A stretch of DNA of 62,562 nucleotides from a virus. Location of the stretch: UHGV virus genome UHGV-0106067, one strand, 5' to 3'. This document shows, piece after piece, positions 628 through 7,416 of this stretch; the stretch's first letter is position 1, and each line of letters starts with the position of its first letter. The translations under genes and the position numbers were made by a program. Below the pieces are notes generated by a model. It had not been told where the DNA came from. It saw nothing but the letters and a program-made list of their open reading frames with translations, and did no database searches.

Positions 628-2601
628 TTATGCTGCTACGGCATTCACACCAACAGTAAGACTTTCAATCAGCACAGGGTAAGTTGCCGCATTTCCGGTA
701 ATATCCGTAATTGCCAGCGCGTTGGCCTCAAAGGCTGCATTCGTCCATCTGGTCAGCGTAAACGGTTTTCCTGCTGCATTATCAAGCACCGGCGTGACGT
801 TCAGCGAGCCACCACCCGGGAAGCGGAAAGTCAGCGTGTGCCAGTCGTGATCGAACGGACCATAACTACCAAGCCGCTGTGATGTGGTGTTTGCATGATA
901 CATCACATTGATGTTTGTTTTATCAGTCTGCAGATAGAAGGCCGCAATATAACCCTCCTCTGATTCCGCTCCCGGCCATCCACTACCGCGCCAGTAAATA
1001 CCCGCAGAATATTGATTTGCAGAAGCATTGAGAGATACATCATCGGGGATTTTAAAGCGCAGCGTGATTTCACCGCCGTTATCGAACAGCTCCTTCCCCT
1101 TACCGGCATCAATTGCGTGCGATACTTTCCAGGTCTTTTTCTGTGCAAGACCATTTTCTGGTTTTTCAAGACGAAGGGCTTTTTTACCTGAACCACTGTC
1201 ACTGACCAGCGTGTTTTTGACATCTGTCAGCGTCCAGCCCTGCGAAGCCAGAGCGGCATTTTCCGCATTCACATCATAAGCCAGCACTGACTGTATCTTT
1301 GTCGGGACAACGGCTTCAGGCTGAGTATCGCCACTCTCCTGTGCTGGTTGCGATACGCCTCCGCCTGAAGAAACCGCGGCTTTTGTCACTTTCCCGGAAA
1401 CAAAATCTGCCACTCTGCCCACATGCAGAAGAATGGCTGTTGCCAGACGGTCGGAAATAATTCCGCGACGCGCCCATGAACCAAAGTGGGTTTTACGATC
1501 GGATGTTGTCCAGCTCTTCGCATCCGTTCGTCCACCGGAACCATAATACCCGATAGCCGGAATATCCGGGTCTTCTGACGGTTCATTGGTCCCGACTTTC
1601 TGACCATTGTCATCCATCATAAACGGCACAAAGAAGATATTTTTACCGGCTTTGGTTTTGTATGCGCCATAGACGGCATCGTATTGCGCTGAATACGTCT
1701 CCTTCCAGTAGTACGTCGTGTCACCACAAATCCAGGGCACCAGAGAAGGAGAAGCACCAGCGCACTGACCGGATACTCCCGCCAGGTCAGAACGGTATTT
1801 TTCCACCATGGCATCAAACATGGCGGGCTGACTGGCGTACGCTCCCTGTTTTAAATCAAACTCGCCCTGCATCCAGACAACACAAAGCAGTATGTTTTTG
1901 GGGTTTGCCTTCAGCGCGACCTGAGTGCGTGTCAGCAGGTCTTTATACAACGGCTTATCAACGCCCCATCGTTCAGATTTATCCGACGCTCCTGAACTTT
2001 CACTGAACGTTCCGTCAGCACCGGCTGTAAACGCAGAGCCACCACGACAGCACGGCACTAACAAAATACCCGCATTTTCCGGCATAAAGGGCAACAGCTT
2101 TTTGGCAATATGCAATCCCTGTCCGACACACCCATACTGCTCTGCGCTGGCTTTCGGATGAGAAAAACGGCTCAAATCCTGCACATCATGCAGGCAGTGG
2201 TCCGCCGGAATGATGTCGTTATATGCACAGGCCGCACCACCCGGTGTCACCGTACTGCGACGCGCCAGCTGTTTAATACGCGGGTCCGGACGGTCATATG
2301 TCTCCGGCAGCGGCAGGCCTTCACCATACGCCATGCCGTTTGACTGTCCGGCCAGCGCAATGACAAAGTAATATTCTGGTTCAACAACAACAGTCCGGGT
2401 ACCATCTCCCCCCGGTGAAACTACCGGAGAGGTCATATCCCCTTCAGCGACTATAGCCTGGATAAATTCAGCACCATAACCCGCGTTTGAGATAATCGGA
2501 CTACCATAGGGTTGCCAGCCTTCCTTCAGTTTTTGCGTCAGTTTTCCTGCGAGGTCTGACGGCGATGATGCCCTGACCACATCATAATGTTTAAATGCCA
2601 T
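628..2601 (-). CDS. nanS-p: Prophage-type sialate O-acetylesterase NanS-p (DUF1737 N-domain + SASA/SGNH esterase + C-terminal lectin-like domain)
   Basis: N-terminus MAFKHYDVVRASSPSDLAGKLTQKLKEGWQP is DUF1737-like. Catalytic GQSN motif (ALAGQSNGMAYGEG). 657 aa, SD GGGAGGA. Confidence 0.85.
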   Translation of the reverse strand: MAFKHYDVVRASSPSDLAGKLTQKLKEGWQPYGSPIISNAGYGAEFIQAIVAEGDMTSPVVSPGGDGTRTVVVEPEYYFVIALAGQSNGMAYGEGLPLPETYDRPDPRIKQLARRSTVTPGGAACAYNDIIPADHCLHDVQDLSRFSHPKASAEQYGCVGQGLHIAKKLLPFMPENAGILLVPCCRGGSAFTAGADGTFSESSGASDKSERWGVDKPLYKDLLTRTQVALKANPKNILLCVVWMQGEFDLKQGAYASQPAMFDAMVEKYRSDLAGVSGQCAGASPSLVPWICGDTTYYWKETYSAQYDAVYGAYKTKAGKNIFFVPFMMDDNGQKVGTNEPSEDPDIPAIGYYGSGGRTDAKSWTTSDRKTHFGSWARRGIISDRLATAILLHVGRVADFVSGKVTKAAVSSGGGVSQPAQESGDTQPEAVVPTKIQSVLAYDVNAENAALASQGWTLTDVKNTLVSDSGSGKKALRLEKPENGLAQKKTWKVSHAIDAGKGKELFDNGGEITLRFKIPDDVSLNASANQYSAGIYWRGSGWPGAESEEGYIAAFYLQTDKTNINVMYHANTTSQRLGSYGPFDHDWHTLTFRFPGGGSLNVTPVLDNAAGKPFTLTRWTNAAFEANALAITDITGNAATYPVLIESLTVGVNAVAA

Positions 2602-2737
2602 GAATCCTCCCGGCCGGGATAGTGGGTTGAATCAGATAAGGACTGACTGAAGTCTGAAAATACAAAAGACAACTGCCAGTAAAAACGAAAAGGCCGCGCA
2701 GTTGCGCAGTCTCATCACCATCGGGTATTATTCACAC

Positions 2738-2809
2738 GGTGAATAATCGAAACTCACTTTCTTTGTTTTATTCCTTGCCGCTCGCGCCTCCCGGCGCGGG
2801 CTTTTTTTG
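2738..2809 (+). ncRNA. Candidate ~70-nt Hfq-type sRNA divergent from nanS-p
   Basis: -35 TTGCGC (2702-2707), 18-nt spacer, -10 TATTAT (2726-2731). U-rich body. Strong intrinsic terminator CGCGCC-tccc-GGCGCG plus T7 (2778-2809). No ORF. Confidence 0.4.
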
Positions 2810-2811
2810 CA

Positions 2812-2840
2812 TGTAAAAAGGCCCCTGCGATGAGGGGCCT
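2812..2840 (-). terminator. Intrinsic terminator, convergent with the plus-strand terminator at 2778-2809
   Basis: Minus strand reads GGCCCCT-catcgc-AGGGGCC followed by TTTTTAC. Confidence 0.6.
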
Positions 2841-3211
2841 GAGAGTATTACCTGGTTTCAGTTAACTGCATAGTGCCGGGTGCCTCCCGGTGAGTTCAGC
2901 CCGGTGCCACCGAACCCGCGTCTTTCACATTGCCTGTGACATTAAAAATGCCAGCCCGCACCAGCCGCCCCGCCGCTGAGGGGGATTCACCATGCGTTGC
3001 GATTTTTAACAAATTCACCGCCAGCCAGACAATCATCAACTTGCTGAATTGTGAGGTATTTAAAAATTTCCCCGATTAACTGATACCCTGCTAACCACCT
3101 GTTGTTTTCTTTTTCAGCAACAAAAAAGCCCGCTCATCGGCGGATTCGGCTGCGTGGCAATGTAACCATTCTTATCATGATATGAGGATTTTTACGATTG
3201 TAAAATGTTTT

Positions 3212-4306
3212 TTAACTGACACCAGAATCATCATAACCGCGACTTGTTATAGCTTGCCTGTATGCGTTCATTTTGCGTTCTGCGTACTGGACAACATCTT
3301 TAATGACAAGCTTATGAACAACTGAAATAAGGTCATTTATATAACAAAAGTCAGGTGACTTATTTTTCACTGGCAACCAAATAACATCGTTCTTAATTTT
3401 TCTATTACTAACACTATCCCCCCATGAATATTTATGTGAAATAGACCTATAAATACATGAAATAATGCCCAAATAAGCAAACTTTGTCCTTCCATCCTCA
3501 TTGTTAACATAGAGTCGCAAATTATGACTGTCGTTTGAAAAAAAGTCTCGCTCCTGATAAGTTACAACGAATGTCTTACCACCAATAAAAATACAGTTCC
3601 CTTTTTCCAAGAGTGAGTCATCATAGGCGATATAAGAACTAACAGAGTTATTATCACGGCTAGCACAAAGATAAGGAACATCCCCACTATTTTCTATGAT
3701 GTCTCTAGACAATATGTTTCCTGTATTGCACACTGAGAATAACTCAGTAACAGGAAAGCCTGAAAATTCAATATTTTTAAAATGTTCCAGGATAAGATAA
3801 TCTTTTTCCGTTAGTTGGTAATCACTCAGCCCAGCAGCTATCAGGTATGCTTCCAGCTCTTCTATATGGGCCGCTTCCAGCTCTTCTATATAATTATCCA
3901 TAAAAAACCAGTCAATTTCATTATTTTTCACTGGTAATGAGATGAAATATTCTCCATCTCTGAGTTTGGAACTCGATAACTGTTGACCATAATTAAAACG
4001 CCCCTTTAAAGCTTTATTAATCATACTGGCAACATACAGTCCGCGCTTTGCATTAAAGTCGGACTTACTTGATTTTAATGTAAGAACATGCACCTTCATT
4101 TCTACGCTGGCACAATAAGGATGATAAAAAGCATCTCCAAAAAAATTAACGCTTATAAAATTTTCATAATGTCTTGCATCATCCATAAACTCGGTATCAA
4201 ACTCTCCGATGATACCGTTTTGATCGCTCTTTGCTGAAACACGTTTGATTTTGCCTGGTTTTAATCTTCCTGAGGAGATAAGCGAGCCTGTGCTCACATA
4301 GAACAA
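3212..4306 (-). CDS. RM specificity subunit (HsdS/BcgIB-like, two target-recognition domains)
   Basis: 364 aa. Two variable halves separated by a helical spacer (NYIEELEAAHIEELEAYL). N-terminal WGEFRIGDLF-type motif lies just upstream of the TTG start, so the start is uncertain. Immediately follows the MTase gene. Confidence 0.7.
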   Translation of the reverse strand: MFYVSTGSLISSGRLKPGKIKRVSAKSDQNGIIGEFDTEFMDDARHYENFISVNFFGDAFYHPYCASVEMKVHVLTLKSSKSDFNAKRGLYVASMINKALKGRFNYGQQLSSSKLRDGEYFISLPVKNNEIDWFFMDNYIEELEAAHIEELEAYLIAAGLSDYQLTEKDYLILEHFKNIEFSGFPVTELFSVCNTGNILSRDIIENSGDVPYLCASRDNNSVSSYIAYDDSLLEKGNCIFIGGKTFVVTYQERDFFSNDSHNLRLYVNNEDGRTKFAYLGIISCIYRSISHKYSWGDSVSNRKIKNDVIWLPVKNKSPDFCYINDLISVVHKLVIKDVVQYAERKMNAYRQAITSRGYDDSGVS

Positions 4307-4365
4307 ATCGCCAATCCTGAACTCTCCCCACTCAACGCTTCTTAATTTATCGCTGAGCGGGGAAT

Positions 4366-6327
4366 TTACTTTCCCGCAAAATTGTTTTCACCTTGTTTTT
4401 TCAGTAATTGCGAGACCTCCCATGCAAGGTAATCACCTACCGTCTTTTTGAAATCCTCCAGCGTTGGCCTAGCATCTACTGGCCTGGTCTGATTCCAGTC
4501 CTCACCACTATCAGGATCGATTGTTCCCTCAAAATATTCATCCTCCGTAAAGATATTAAGGCAACCTTTCCCGAAGTGAACCAGATCCACAACCTCCTGA
4601 TAACGCTCTTTTGCACGATCGGCATCAACAAGATTGTTTCTTGCCTTTTTGCGATTAGAGCGAGCGTAGCCGTCATTGGAAAAGTCGATAAACTTAACAG
4701 CCTGTTTCGCGTTATGCGGAATTTTTACCTGAAAAACGTAAATGTACGTCTGAACGCTTGATTTACCAATAAACAGATCCGCAGGCATTTTGATGCTTGC
4801 CAGCAAGGTATTTTCCTTGAGTATTTTTTTGTTGTACTCCGTAGCCTTTCCTGTGCCAGCTGAACTCTGGATAATCACTGCAGCATAGCCTTTATCCATC
4901 ATCGACAGCGCCTTCTGCACGAAAATCATGCCGTTACCTTTAGCTGAATACGGAGGATTGAGAATAAATGCGTCCGCAGGGAATTTTTCTCCTGTTTTCC
5001 CAAATCCATACTTGCCGTCAAAATCGGCCAGCGAGTCTTTATTGAGGATATTCGAGCTACCATCCCCCATCAAAATCATATTCAGGATGGCCAGCATATA
5101 AATACTGGATAACACCTCAAGGCCAAGAAGCTGTTCAGCCTTGATTTGCGCTTCCTTAAGTTGTAGTTCGTTCGGTGAGTGAATATTTTCTCTGGCGTCA
5201 ATGAGCATTTCATTCATTGCAGCCACAAGCAATCCCGCAGAACCTGTAGCAAAATCCCACACATAGGAATCTTTGTTTACTCTGGCGAGTCGTGCCAGCA
5301 ATGTGGCAACATAAGGTGGTGTCAGAACGACGTCATTGAGCTTGTCCTGCGTAAATCCAAGCCAGCGATACATCTCATTAAACAGTTTGCCCGTAAAATC
5401 GGTGGTCAGTCCAATTTTGTAATACTCCCCAAGATCATCAACAACTTTAACAAACACGCGCTTTAACTGGCTTTCACCGTTGACTGGTTTGTTAATGTTT
5501 TCAGTCCACAGCGTATTTTGCAACGAGCGCAAAATCATTTCTCTTTTTGTTTCAGGAACAGCTTTCAGCCTTAAAAAGTTCCTTATTTTCCTGAAAATAA
5601 TATCACCATCACGCAAGTCCTCCTCCGTTGAAGAGGTCAGTTCTTTTTTATCCAGCGGTGCTAACTTTCCCGGAATCCCCAACGTTGCAATAACGGTAGC
5701 CACAACAAGGTAAACACGATCGCTTTCACCAAGCCCCTTTTCATTCTGGTAAATATCGTTATTCAGACGGGAAAGTCGCGTGTCTATCTCTTCCTCTTTG
5801 CTGGCCTTGATTTTTTCCAGTTCTTCGGGAGGAAGATTAAGCAGCTTTATCTTGTTGAGAAATCCATCAACATTTTTGTCAGCAAGGAACGATAAGTCGG
5901 TGAATTCACCAACCTTCTGTCCGGCTCCTAAATTATTCTTTGATACGTACCACACGCCGATTTCATGATGCAGTTCGCCTGTACCATCATCGCGCCAGCC
6001 GGTCATACCAATAGCAATAATATCAGGGTAATTGGTGAACTGAAGAAGTGCGTTGGCATAATGGACTGCGCCATTCACCGCGTATCCATTAATATTTTTA
6101 AAATTCCATTCTTTTCTGGCATCTTTGTTCTCAATAATACCGTTGCTGCCAAGTCTGATAAGCCTGTCCTTGTAGCCTTTATACTCGATGAGAACGGGAT
6201 ACTGCTTGCCGTATTTGTCCTTAACAAGGAGTTTTACGTCGGGACGATTACCGCCTGCGCCGCCATTTTTCGAAAAATAAGCGTCCAGTGCGTTATCGAT
6301 CTCTCCGTTAAGTGATGCATTCTGCAA
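4366..6327 (-). CDS. Fused PD-ExK endonuclease / N6-adenine DNA methyltransferase (type IIB BcgIA-like). The listed ORF begins at an internal TTG. The SD-ATG at 6461 is out of frame because of the heptamer tract.
   Basis: MTase motif I VWDFATGSAGLL and motif IV NPPY (FILNPPYSAKG). N-terminal RPD...17 aa...IEYK nuclease motif. The frame stays open upstream through the repeat. Confidence 0.8.
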   Translation of the reverse strand: MQNASLNGEIDNALDAYFSKNGGAGGNRPDVKLLVKDKYGKQYPVLIEYKGYKDRLIRLGSNGIIENKDARKEWNFKNINGYAVNGAVHYANALLQFTNYPDIIAIGMTGWRDDGTGELHHEIGVWYVSKNNLGAGQKVGEFTDLSFLADKNVDGFLNKIKLLNLPPEELEKIKASKEEEIDTRLSRLNNDIYQNEKGLGESDRVYLVVATVIATLGIPGKLAPLDKKELTSSTEEDLRDGDIIFRKIRNFLRLKAVPETKREMILRSLQNTLWTENINKPVNGESQLKRVFVKVVDDLGEYYKIGLTTDFTGKLFNEMYRWLGFTQDKLNDVVLTPPYVATLLARLARVNKDSYVWDFATGSAGLLVAAMNEMLIDARENIHSPNELQLKEAQIKAEQLLGLEVLSSIYMLAILNMILMGDGSSNILNKDSLADFDGKYGFGKTGEKFPADAFILNPPYSAKGNGMIFVQKALSMMDKGYAAVIIQSSAGTGKATEYNKKILKENTLLASIKMPADLFIGKSSVQTYIYVFQVKIPHNAKQAVKFIDFSNDGYARSNRKKARNNLVDADRAKERYQEVVDLVHFGKGCLNIFTEDEYFEGTIDPDSGEDWNQTRPVDARPTLEDFKKTVGDYLAWEVSQLLKKQGENNFAGK

Positions 6328-6417
6328 CTTGTAATCAAGCCTGTAAGATTTAAGCCATGAGTTCGCCAGTTCGGTAATTTCCGGCTCAACAGATTTTACA
6401 GACTTTCTTGATTTACT

Positions 6418-6452
6418 GCTGGTCGCTGGTCGCTGGTCGCTGGTCGCTGGTC
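6418..6452 (-). repeat. Heptanucleotide tandem repeat (GACCAGC)x5 in the 5' coding end of the RM gene
   Basis: Five perfect copies of gctggtc on the plus strand at 6418-6452. They lie 9 nt downstream of ATG 6461 (SD AAGGA). Confidence 0.95.
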
Positions 6453-6635
6453 TGGCAGCATAAAATCATCCTTTTATGAAAATCAACGATTTTTGAGCAC
6501 TCGCACACAAAAAATTACCGCATTGGTTGCAACGACAACCTGCATTTTGCGGAGCATATGACAAATAAAGTACGGGTGCGTTGAGGATGCCAGACACATC
6601 AGAGGTGGCGGGAGATTACTCCCCTGCCTGGTCTC

Positions 6636-6791
6636 TTACTTCTCAGATTCGTAGTCTACGAAGACAGCGACCTCCGTCTGGCCGGTTCGGATTCGTACCT
6701 CGCAGAAGTCTTTCCTCGTTACCAGTGCTATCACTACGACGGTAATACAGATGACGATCAGGGCGATTAACATCGCCTTTTGCTGCTTCAT
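6636..6791 (-). CDS. hok: Hok/Gef-family type I toxin (HokD/RelF-like)
   Basis: Translated by hand: MKQQKAMLIALIVICITVVVIALVTRKDFCEVRIRTGQTEVAVFVDYESEK (51 aa). Below the ORF-track cutoff. SD AAGGAG. Confidence 0.9.
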   Translation of the reverse strand: MKQQKAMLIALIVICITVVVIALVTRKDFCEVRIRTGQTEVAVFVDYESEK

Positions 6792-6975
6792 AGCCTACTT
6801 CTCCTTGCCTTTCGGCACGTAAGAGGCTAACCTAAGTTTGTAAGTCATAGATTTGGCCTCAGATTAATGTTAAGCGTCCTGCAAGACGCGTAATGTTAAC
6901 TGGGGCTTTTCTCTGTCTGCCTTACGGCTGCATGCCCGAGGCAGACAGCCTCAAGCACCCGCAGCTATTCTACAG
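6792..6975 (-). promoter_or_regulatory. hok mRNA leader with a mok-like upstream ORF and the expected Sok antisense region; candidate -10 TAGAAT
   Basis: The leader matches the remembered R1 hok leader blocks (GCTTGAGGCTnTCTGCCTC, GGCAGAnAGA, AGCCCC, TAGCCTCTTAC, GCAAGGAGAAG). uORF ATGACTTAC...AAGTAG ends just upstream of the hok ATG (TAG-GCT-ATG). Confidence 0.6.
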
Positions 6976-6990
6976 TAAAAACTCGCGCTT

Positions 6991-7416
6991 TCAATTTCCC
7001 GCACGTCCGGCAAACTGACTGGCCTGTGATCCTGATGGTTCACGCTCAACGTACCTGTCCATTTCCAGCTTTACTCCCTGCATGATCAACATCCCCTCAA
7101 TAACACCTTCTGCTTTTTGCAGTACCCGCCCGGCCCAGCAATCAGAGCGCCCATGCTTACGGCCCAGTGACATAAGCGTCATCCCGAACACATAATAATC
7201 ATACAGAAAATCATGCAAATCGCTGTTGTTGACGTTCAGTTGCGCCATGCAATTGCTGATAATCAGCGCATCGTCATCGGTACACTGAGGCCGTGATTTA
7301 ACCTTTGACGGGATCAGCCCCTTAAATCCGGCGGCAATGGGCGACCAGCTCACATCCTCATGATTATTGGCCACCCATGCGCCCCAGCGTTCAAGCACCT
7401 GCTGAATATCACGCAT
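6991..7416 (-). CDS. Q: Late-gene antiterminator Q (phage 21/933W Q family)
   Basis: [24 protein letters not shown]... matches the remembered Q21-type N-terminus. The start was moved to M36 of the listed ORF. Overlaps the ninH stop. Confidence 0.85.

Follow-up and report, generated by a model that had tools for sequence, protein, structure and literature searches.

A hok/sok and switchable restriction–modification cassette probably separates Q from the late promoter pR' in a Stx-phage-like genome

The viral sequence UHGV-0106067 (62,562 nt; this whole stretch is called the window here) is the complete genome, in circularly permuted form, of a temperate phage that resembles the Shiga toxin (Stx)-converting phages (Sepvirinae-type) and is without stx. 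On its minus strand, between the gene for the antiterminator Q and that for a nanS-p-type esterase, lies a cassette composed of a hok/sok type I toxin locus and a switchable restriction–modification (RM) system. We conclude, with a probability of about 0.8, that this cassette sits between Q and the late promoter pR', upstream of the late operon, and that it is not late cargo driven by Q. The anatomy, homologies, insert boundaries and repeat polymorphism described below were read from the sequence and from comparisons, and from these we infer expression throughout.

Results

Insert boundaries and the late promoter

The window was aligned by blastn with the corresponding locus (L019) of phage Sp5 of O157:H7 Sakai. 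Sp5 positions 1–867 correspond to window 7911–7039 (ninG through about codon 126 of Q), 897–996 to 3219–3120 (pR' and the first hairpin, 88% identity), and 2994–4630 to 3054–1409 (the region following stx2B, STnc100 and nanS-p). What is a 30-bp gap in Sp5 (868–896) is filled in the window by a 3,819-bp insert (3220–7038, minus strand) containing a new Q tail, hok/sok, a repeat tract and the two RM genes, RM-A and S. The true stx slot (3055–3119, minus strand) is 65 nt long and empty, whereas its Sp5 equivalent spans about 2 kb and contains the 3' part of StxS, tR', ileZ-argN-argO and stx2AB. In the Stx-phage architecture StxS/tR' would be expected about 258 nt after pR'; the StxS 3' segment and tR' (Sp5 997–1203) were without counterpart in the window, where homology ends at 3120 (Sp5 996). 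Because the 30-bp gap of Sp5 is replaced by 3,819 bp and the interval of about 2 kb is cut to 65 nt, there are two slots rather than one, and on this alignment the stx position is empty and the cassette is not in it. A preliminary description of this DNA had assigned the cassette to the stx position. That assignment is not supported, the slot after pR' being the 65 nt and the cassette lying before pR'.

The predicted late promoter pR' occupies positions 3170–3204 of the minus strand, with the −35 hexamer TTTACA (3204–3199), a 16-nt spacer and the −10 hexamer TATCAT (3182–3177). The promoter at 3204–3177 scored 10/12 in a promoter scan, and its −35 hexamer begins 8 nt past the stop codon of S (TAA, 3214–3212). 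The predicted start is the A at 3170, the equivalent of the Sp5 start site, and a candidate sigma-dependent pause element, TACATT, is found from +7 to +12 (3164–3159). The 100-nt block that matches Sp5 is also near-identical to a sequence of Shigella phage Ss-VASD annotated as 'putative late promoter PR'', including the trailing hairpin. A 35-nt pattern extending from the −35 hexamer to +1 had a single exact match in the window, and one match versus none expected when up to 3 mismatches were allowed; the exact pattern also matched once each in Ss-VASD, PhiR12_3 and E2855. Across 7 aligned pR' loci the −35 hexamer, the spacer ATCGTAAAAATC, the −10 hexamer, the +1 region, TGGTTA and CCACGC were invariant. 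The statement of the preliminary description that the hok promoter is the only clear one after Q was thus wrong, as this pR' homologue scores equally well in the scan.

The position of the start site could be compared with published transcript ends. In Sakai the Sp5 pR' start was mapped by differential RNA sequencing (dRNA-seq) to 1,266,203 and the StxS/tR' 3' end by Term-seq to 1,266,460, both in NC_002695.1 (Sy et al., PMC7547250). These coordinates were shifted by +142 to NC_002695.2, the shift being fixed by the T-run of tR' at 1198–1203 of the Sp5 locus, after which the Sp5 pR' start falls 7 nt past TATCAT. For the related protein Q21, loading requires no more than the promoter from −40 to −1 and the pause element (10.1101/651190). 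Because the homology with Sp5 starts at about −50 (window 3219, relative to the start site at 3170), the Q-binding site at pR' is probably retained.

As the pR' start (about 3170) is 3' of the cassette, Q-modified RNA polymerase would never transcribe the cassette. Late, Q-dependent transcription of the cargo, as proposed in the preliminary description, is not supported. The window has a single pR' homologue, which is 3' of the cassette, so that on positional grounds the cassette would be insulated from Q-dependent read-through, with Q-loaded polymerase starting 3' of it and moving away. The view that the cassette occupies the stx position 3' of pR'/qut and is strongly expressed late in a Q-dependent manner draws on its location between Q and nanS-p, like stx, on its late-gene orientation, and on a good sigma-70-like promoter overlapping the Q stop codon, where Stx phages have pR'. 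However, the promoter at the Q stop is the hok promoter, part of a conserved hok module and without similarity to pR', whereas the sole pR' homologue lies 3' of S, and in the O111:H8 strain E2855 the full pR'-StxS-tR'-tRNA block comes after the cassette. We therefore regard late, Q-dependent expression of the cassette as barely tenable.

Q and the cassette in related genomes

The Q gene (6991–7416, minus strand) encodes a member of the Q21/Q933 family (PF06530, E = 1e-47) that weakly matches the solved Q21 structures 6P18 and 6JNX. Its protein has 72% amino acid identity to the Q of Ss-VASD, with divergence starting after YVERE; the last 16 or so codons (7038–6991) are new sequence from the insert, the Sp5 homology stopping at 7039. 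In a set of 5,426 complete E. coli genomes, the window Q allele (at least 90% identity) was present in about 30, nearly all of which carry the cassette directly 3' of it. This near-perfect linkage, together with the derivation of the C-terminal tail of Q from the insert and the degraded hairpin next to pR', would be compatible with a diverged Q that uses a second or replacement loading site near the hok promoter, leaving 3204–3170 redundant or vestigial. Physical adjacency explains the linkage equally well, and three diverged cassette lineages show no change in the hexamers, the spacer or the initial transcribed region of pR', which points to purifying selection. Moreover, the initial transcribed region of hok is the tac element, with neither a −10-like pause element nor a repeat resembling the pR' spacer. 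A shifted or duplicated loading site is thus highly improbable, and we continue to favour loading of Q at the pR' downstream of the cassette.

The closest relative was PhiR12_3 (PV340552.1, host ECOR13), which is 99.8% identical over the 8.2 kb examined and has the identical order Q-hok-RM-pR'. About 30 E. coli chromosomes share this arrangement, among them Symbioflor G1/2, G6/7 and G8, O111:H8 E2855 and JNEC-KY177, and public annotation of these genes is mostly hypothetical. The 100-nt pR' block was found in 285 phage records, mostly of Stx1- or Stx2-converting phages, where it overlaps annotated Q, and in 902 of the 5,426 complete E. coli genomes, where it overlaps Q in the sampled Shiga toxin-producing E. 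coli (STEC). In both sampled records of the class with at least 90% identity (22 records) the block instead overlaps a gene annotated as 'restriction endonuclease subunit S'. Such overlap with an S gene was confined to carriers of the cassette.

What follows the cassette differs among its carriers. In E2855 the cassette is succeeded by pR'-StxS-tR'-ileZ-argN-argO, 93.7% identical to Sp5, from which stx2AB is precisely gone. In strain 09-00049, TerB and further genes come after pR' and the tRNAs; in KY174 and 2015C-3121 the cassette is followed by pR'-StxS-tR' alone, and KY173 is like the window. E7-1N7 contains an 85%-identical cassette in a rearranged prophage, with a pR'-like block still 3' of it. 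Because the siblings keep the cassette before pR' while the later slot varies, the cassette would be an island with its own promoter, placed at the far end of the early-right operon.

Two Q-type genes are present in the composite prophage of E7-1N7 (L006, 1842–10268). Behind the first, a PF06530-like Q, come two genes in reverse orientation and then hok, 64 copies of the repeat, the RM genes, the pR'-like block and a fragment of IS4; the second, a DUF1133 Q, closes another nin set further on.

Separation of Q from pR' by the cassette seems compatible with lytic growth. PhiR12_3 is deposited as a complete phage and the PhiR series is a panel of temperate phages used in plaquing assays, which suggests that a phage with this arrangement is viable.

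The hok/sok locus

The hok coding sequence (CDS) (6636–6791, minus strand) specifies a 51-amino-acid toxin that matches PF01848 over the curated cut-off (E = 7e-22), and the Rfam sok family RF01794 matches 6786–6960 on the same strand (118.4 bits versus a gathering score of 59). The hok promoter, TTGAAA-16-TAGAAT (6967–6994, minus strand), scored 10/12 in the promoter scan, and its −35 hexamer overlaps the Q stop codon (TGA, 6993–6991). The predicted hok mRNA (6575–6960, minus strand; folded as 6960–6566) starts with the tac element, contains a short mok frame and the region targeted by Sok, and has fbi at about 6589–6577 near its 3' end. In its minimum free energy (MFE) structure the 5' sequence GGGUGCUUGAGG is paired with CCUCAA.CGCACCC at the 3' end (tac/fbi), with z = −6.1 versus shuffled sequences. 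Both the MFE and the centroid folds pair nucleotides 1–12 of the hok mRNA with its 3' end.

The window was also aligned with a hok-only locus (STEC2018-553) and with the hok plus RM locus of E7-1N7. Conservation starts at the −10 hexamer and continues through tac, mok, hok and fbi, whereas the −35 hexamer differs by context. We considered the hok promoter as a candidate for pR' and rejected it, as the conserved hok module runs from the −10 hexamer onward, is also found in non-Q contexts and does not resemble pR'.

The mok frame (6848–6795) ends in a TAG codon (6795–6797) 5 nt, or two codons, before the hok ATG. This TAG is common to the window and 11 related loci that were checked, while four others (L004, L006, L015 and L016) have CAG, which leaves mok in frame into hok. 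Where the TAG is present, translation of hok may still be coupled to mok through termination and reinitiation. Three sibling genomes annotate hok as frameshifted.

The RM system and its repeat tract

Downstream of hok lie two genes that specify a BcgI-like RM pair. RM-A (4366–6417 after the repeat tract, with its start codon at 6461; minus strand) is predicted to be a fused PD-(D/E)XK endonuclease and N6-adenine methyltransferase. It matched the PADLOC model REase_MTase_IIG (E = 3e-232, residues 10–675) and Pfam N6_Mtase, and its translation contains RPD...IEYK, DFATGSAG and NPPY. The depositors of PhiR12_3 described it as 'BcgI alpha chain-like'. The S subunit (3212–4297, minus strand) is BcgI beta-like, with two stretches matching Pfam Methylase_S and a match to PADLOC Specificity_II (E = 2e-20), and RefSeq gives an identical 1086-bp CDS for it. 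Two alleles of S were seen, both intact, and the 'split S' of RefSeq did not arise from frameshifts in the loci checked. No third RM gene (HsdR) was found between 3212 and 6461. A sequence search of RM-A against the PDB returned no match, leaving it without a structure-based assignment, and the NCBIfam models gave only sub-threshold matches to HsdM and MAD2.

These data uphold the statement of the preliminary description that a type I toxin locus and an apparently phase-variable RM system lie between Q and nanS-p. The tract that would underlie the latter feature is (GACCAGC)5 at 6418–6452 on the minus strand (Tandem Repeats Finder: period 7, 5.0 copies, 100% match). An ATG at 6461–6459, preceded by the Shine–Dalgarno sequence AGGA 7 nt upstream, is followed by CTGCCA and then by the repeat. 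With n = 5 the frame opened by this ATG stops after 21 codons and is out of frame with RM-A; a full-length RM-A frame requires n to be divisible by 3. The true start of RM-A is assigned to the ATG at 6461, because homologues align right after the tract and an internal TTG would drop conserved N-terminal residues. Both the ATG and the Shine–Dalgarno sequence are kept in the diverged cassette copy (85%).

Copy number varied widely among relatives. The longest perfect run in 15 related loci ranged from 31 to 99 copies, and RM-A was full-length from the ATG in 4 of the 15. Among the Symbioflor sisters, G6/7 has 83 copies, G8 has 99 and G1/2, whose tract is interrupted, has 65 perfect ones; UCPROB-001 has 76, UCPROB-002 has 83 and PhiR12_3 has 83. 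In-frame products would carry a (DQRPATS)n tail of about 126–231 residues. Copy-number polymorphism and the occurrence of both frames are apparently the signature of repeat-driven phase variation. By comparison the five copies of the window are an outlier. Because short-read assembly easily collapses long perfect repeats, n = 5, and with it the OFF frame, may be artefactual, the assembly having collapsed a perfect tract of several hundred bp.

Public annotations start RM-A at the internal TTG, which hides the phase-variable start, and place spurious 'YXWGXW repeat-containing protein' or 'EmrB/QacA' open reading frames (ORFs) opposite the repeat (3222–3839 in L001; also in L007–L018). Read on the plus strand, the tract (GCTGGTC units) gives GCTGGTCGCTGGTC..., and its unit boundaries match Chi (GCTGGTGG) at 7 of 8 positions, such that the siblings contain near-Chi arrays of up to 99 motifs. 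Canonical Chi was absent from the window, versus about 2.2 occurrences expected.

The short tract bears on the notion that the cassette is an inert remnant, i.e. decaying cargo in which RM is locked OFF, mok is broken and the shortness of the tract reflects lost switching. An out-of-frame n = 5, far under the 31–99 copies elsewhere, would fit such decay, as would the mok stop and the frameshifted hok annotations. However, both RM-A and S have intact frames in the window and wherever a cassette locus retains the exact pR' motif, the one exception seen being 2015C-3121 (L018), where an IS1 element separates A from S. In addition, full-length RM-A in 4 of 15 loci is close to the one in three of a free-running switch, the tac/fbi fold of the hok mRNA is kept, and the short tract may itself reflect assembly collapse. 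We therefore consider an inert remnant very doubtful, and favour a functional island ahead of pR'.

Outside this group, 80 RM-A homologues about 70% identical were recovered (L020–L099), aligning from residues 2–8 of the sequence right after the tract; none of the 80, all from other species, had a 5' repeat tract. They came from Clostridia, Bacteroidota, Pasteurellaceae, Neisseria, Campylobacterales, cyanobacteria and others. Such cross-phylum conservation is unusually high and suggests recent wide horizontal spread of this Type IIB/IIG enzyme.

Transcript ends and genome context

Along the coding strand from 7600 to 3212 a terminator scan predicted no intrinsic-terminator-like site, and we saw no convincing terminator between hok and the RM genes or between S and pR'. 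A hairpin with a T-run in the hok–RM intergenic region (CCGCA...TGCGG) was not significant (z = −0.57) and is not kept in the diverged copy (z = +0.27).

Downstream of pR', a hairpin and T-run at 3121–3144 (minus strand) is the homologue of the first StxS-L hairpin, weakened to −6.3 kcal/mol (z = +0.3) here versus −12.6 kcal/mol (z = −2.95) in Sp5. The hairpin at 3144–3129 was considered as a functional tR' and judged weak on its fold energy. It is followed by an STnc100 small RNA element (2809–3025, minus strand; Rfam RF02076, 149 bits) with a terminator at 2840–2819, the hairpin of which folds with −15.6 kcal/mol (z = −4.65). As the pR'-proximal hairpin is weak, the STnc100 terminator is the first strong one after pR', and it is likely the effective tR' of this phage. 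The RNA made from pR' without antitermination would probably be about 350 nt long and end in STnc100. STnc100 is a backbone element of the phage rather than cargo; in Stx phages it sits 3' of stxB (3' of stx1B in Ss-VASD). It directly follows the empty stx slot, and PhiR5_2 holds two copies of it.

The interval 2602–6990 corresponds exactly to the distance between the end of Q (6991) and the start of nanS-p (2601). The minus-strand order is ninG-ninH-Q, hok/sok, the BcgI-like RM pair, STnc100, nanS-p, DUF1378, DUF826, S21 holin and endolysin. Upstream of Q are ninG (8175–7606, minus strand) and ninH (7609–7409, minus strand). The first late gene, nanS-p (628–2601, minus strand), encodes a sialate O-acetylesterase with the Pfam domains DUF1737, SASA and DUF6645 and is colinear with ECs_1207 of Sp5 and with the SASA esterase of Ss-VASD. 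It is followed on the minus strand by the DUF1378 gene (292–486; PF07125, E = 7e-36) and the DUF826 gene (3–266; PF05696), which is a 100% match to a PhiR12_3 ORF. The S21-type holin (62246–62452, minus strand; PF04971, 'P21 holin S') and the lysozyme-family endolysin (61708–62241, minus strand; PF00959) were 100% and 98.9% identical to PhiR12_3 by tblastn. They continue the late operon past the circular wrap and do not adjoin DUF1378 in window coordinates. The order Q, cargo, nanS-p, DUF1378 and S21 lysis genes given in the preliminary description therefore stands, with the amendment that the lysis genes lie across the wrap and that DUF826 intervenes. Its view that the region is syntenic with Stx phages is borne out by Ss-VASD, by the colinear nanS-p and lysis regions and by the Sp5 blocks.

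We also confirmed the reported absence of tRNAs and stx, as ARAGORN detected no tRNA gene across the whole window and tblastn of the window with the A and B subunits of Stx1 and Stx2 gave nothing below E = 0.4.

At the wrap junction (1/62562) the DUF826 gene spans position 1, and PhiR12_3 is colinear over the junction. Elsewhere, adjacent Rfam matches to isrK (61 bits) and C4 antisense RNA (77 bits) at 16002–16189 on the plus strand resemble a P1/P7-type or Gifsy-type antirepressor or anti-Q control module.

Discussion

Placement of the cassette ahead of pR' leads to a model of its expression. In the lysogen the cassette would be expressed from the constitutive hok (and sok) promoters, and the RM genes would be fed by read-through or by a weak promoter. 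N-antiterminated read-through from pR is a feature of lambdoid phages such as H-19B and lambda. After induction, N-antiterminated pR transcripts could proceed through ninG-ninH-Q into the cassette, giving it the delayed-early timing of Q itself. Q would then act in trans at pR' to activate nanS-p, lysis and morphogenesis genes. According to this model the cassette would be a defence and addiction island that benefits the lysogen, with ON/OFF heterogeneity, rather than a moron of the late operon.

Several points weigh against this interpretation. The function of pR' and its responsiveness to Q are deduced from homology (88% over 100 nt), and the Q of the window is only 72% identical in protein to Stx-phage Q. 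Were the binding element of this Q subfamily to extend upstream of about −50, part of it would have been lost through the insertion. The linkage between the Q allele and the cassette could reflect co-evolution of Q with a component of the cassette. For read-through from pR an N-type system is assumed, and no RM promoter between hok and the ATG passed the consensus scan.

The distinction between the two slots has consequences beyond this phage. Being between Q and nanS-p is not equivalent to being in the late operon, as cargo inserted before pR' would be expressed in the lysogen or early, whereas cargo after pR' would be Q-dependent like stx; the two slots thus have opposite regulatory consequences. 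This matters for predicting whether prophage cargo such as toxins or defence systems is co-induced with lysis. The arrangement also indicates that Q and its loading site can stand several kb apart in a phage deposited as a complete genome. In addition, the RM genes constitute an unannotated, apparently phase-variable BcgI-like system in E. coli, present in an inducible phage and in commensal, probiotic (Symbioflor) and O111:H8 strains, which could underlie heterogeneous phage resistance or methylation.

A broader extension, which we put forward as speculative and rather unlikely, is that the gap between Q and pR' is a docking site used in at least three diverged lineages, where an RM plus hok cassette is self-promoted in the lysogen and N-dependent and delayed-early after induction, with phase-variable methylation of virions and phase-variable resistance. 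If so, ON variants would boost the enzyme before packaging and methylate progeny genomes, whereas OFF variants would not. A single lysogen would then yield virions of phase-variable epigenetic host range, and its own phage resistance would be phase-variable as well. Read-through from the cassette into pR' could also tie the state of the cassette to the output of the late promoter.

We found no paper on the cassette, the insertion site between Q and pR' or the repeat; Brenes and Laub 2025 (cited in PMC13190303), the apparent source of the PhiR phages, may mention it. Literature searches with the heptamer returned unrelated primer matches only, and searches on phase-variable RM in prophages and on lambdoid defence hotspots returned nothing on the cassette or its site. 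The components are of known kinds, a prophage defence/addiction island and a repeat-switched RM gene, and it is their position that is unusual.

The backbone closely follows that of Stx-converting phages (Sp5, 933W-type phages and Ss-VASD). In both, ninG-ninH-Q (PF06530) and the pR' sequence are colinear, and STnc100, nanS-p, DUF1378, DUF826, S21 holin and endolysin occur in the same downstream order. Identity to Ss-VASD is 94% over 2.6 kb upstream through Q, and the lysis region is colinear too; identity to Sp5 is 82% over ninG-Q, 88% over pR' and 70–72% over nanS-p. Unlike in those phages, where Q and pR' overlap, a 3.8-kb insert parts them here, the C-terminal tail of Q is replaced, and the StxS 3' part, tR', tRNAs and stxAB are missing.

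The hok locus resembles hok/sok of plasmid R1 and chromosomal or prophage hok genes (e.g. hokD of Qin) in its Hok peptide, its sok-matching leader, its tac/fbi pairing and the presence of mok. It differs from them in that mok is stopped by a TAG codon and in that it is coupled to RM in at least three diverged prophage lineages.

The RM system shares with the Type IIB enzyme BcgI (A2B architecture) an A subunit of about 650 amino acids with an N-terminal PD-(D/E)XK domain and an NPPY N6-adenine methyltransferase, a separate S-like subunit of about 340–360 amino acids with two target-recognition regions, and the lack of HsdR. This likeness was read from domain models, motifs and architecture; cleavage on both sides of a bipartite site and methylation of that site, as in BcgI-like systems, are predictions here. 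In contrast to BcgI, RM-A has a repeat-encoded N-terminal (DQRPATS)n extension when in frame.

Phase-variable RM systems include the Type III mod and Type I hsdM/hsdS 'phasevarions' of Haemophilus, Neisseria and Helicobacter. By comparison with general knowledge of these systems, the present one is similar in having, at the 5' end of an ORF, a repeat whose unit is not divisible by 3, together with polymorphic copy numbers and both in-frame and out-of-frame states. However, it is carried by an inducible lambdoid phage of E. coli, it involves a Type IIB/IIG enzyme, and its tracts, with 31–99 heptamers or about 220–690 bp, are unusually long.

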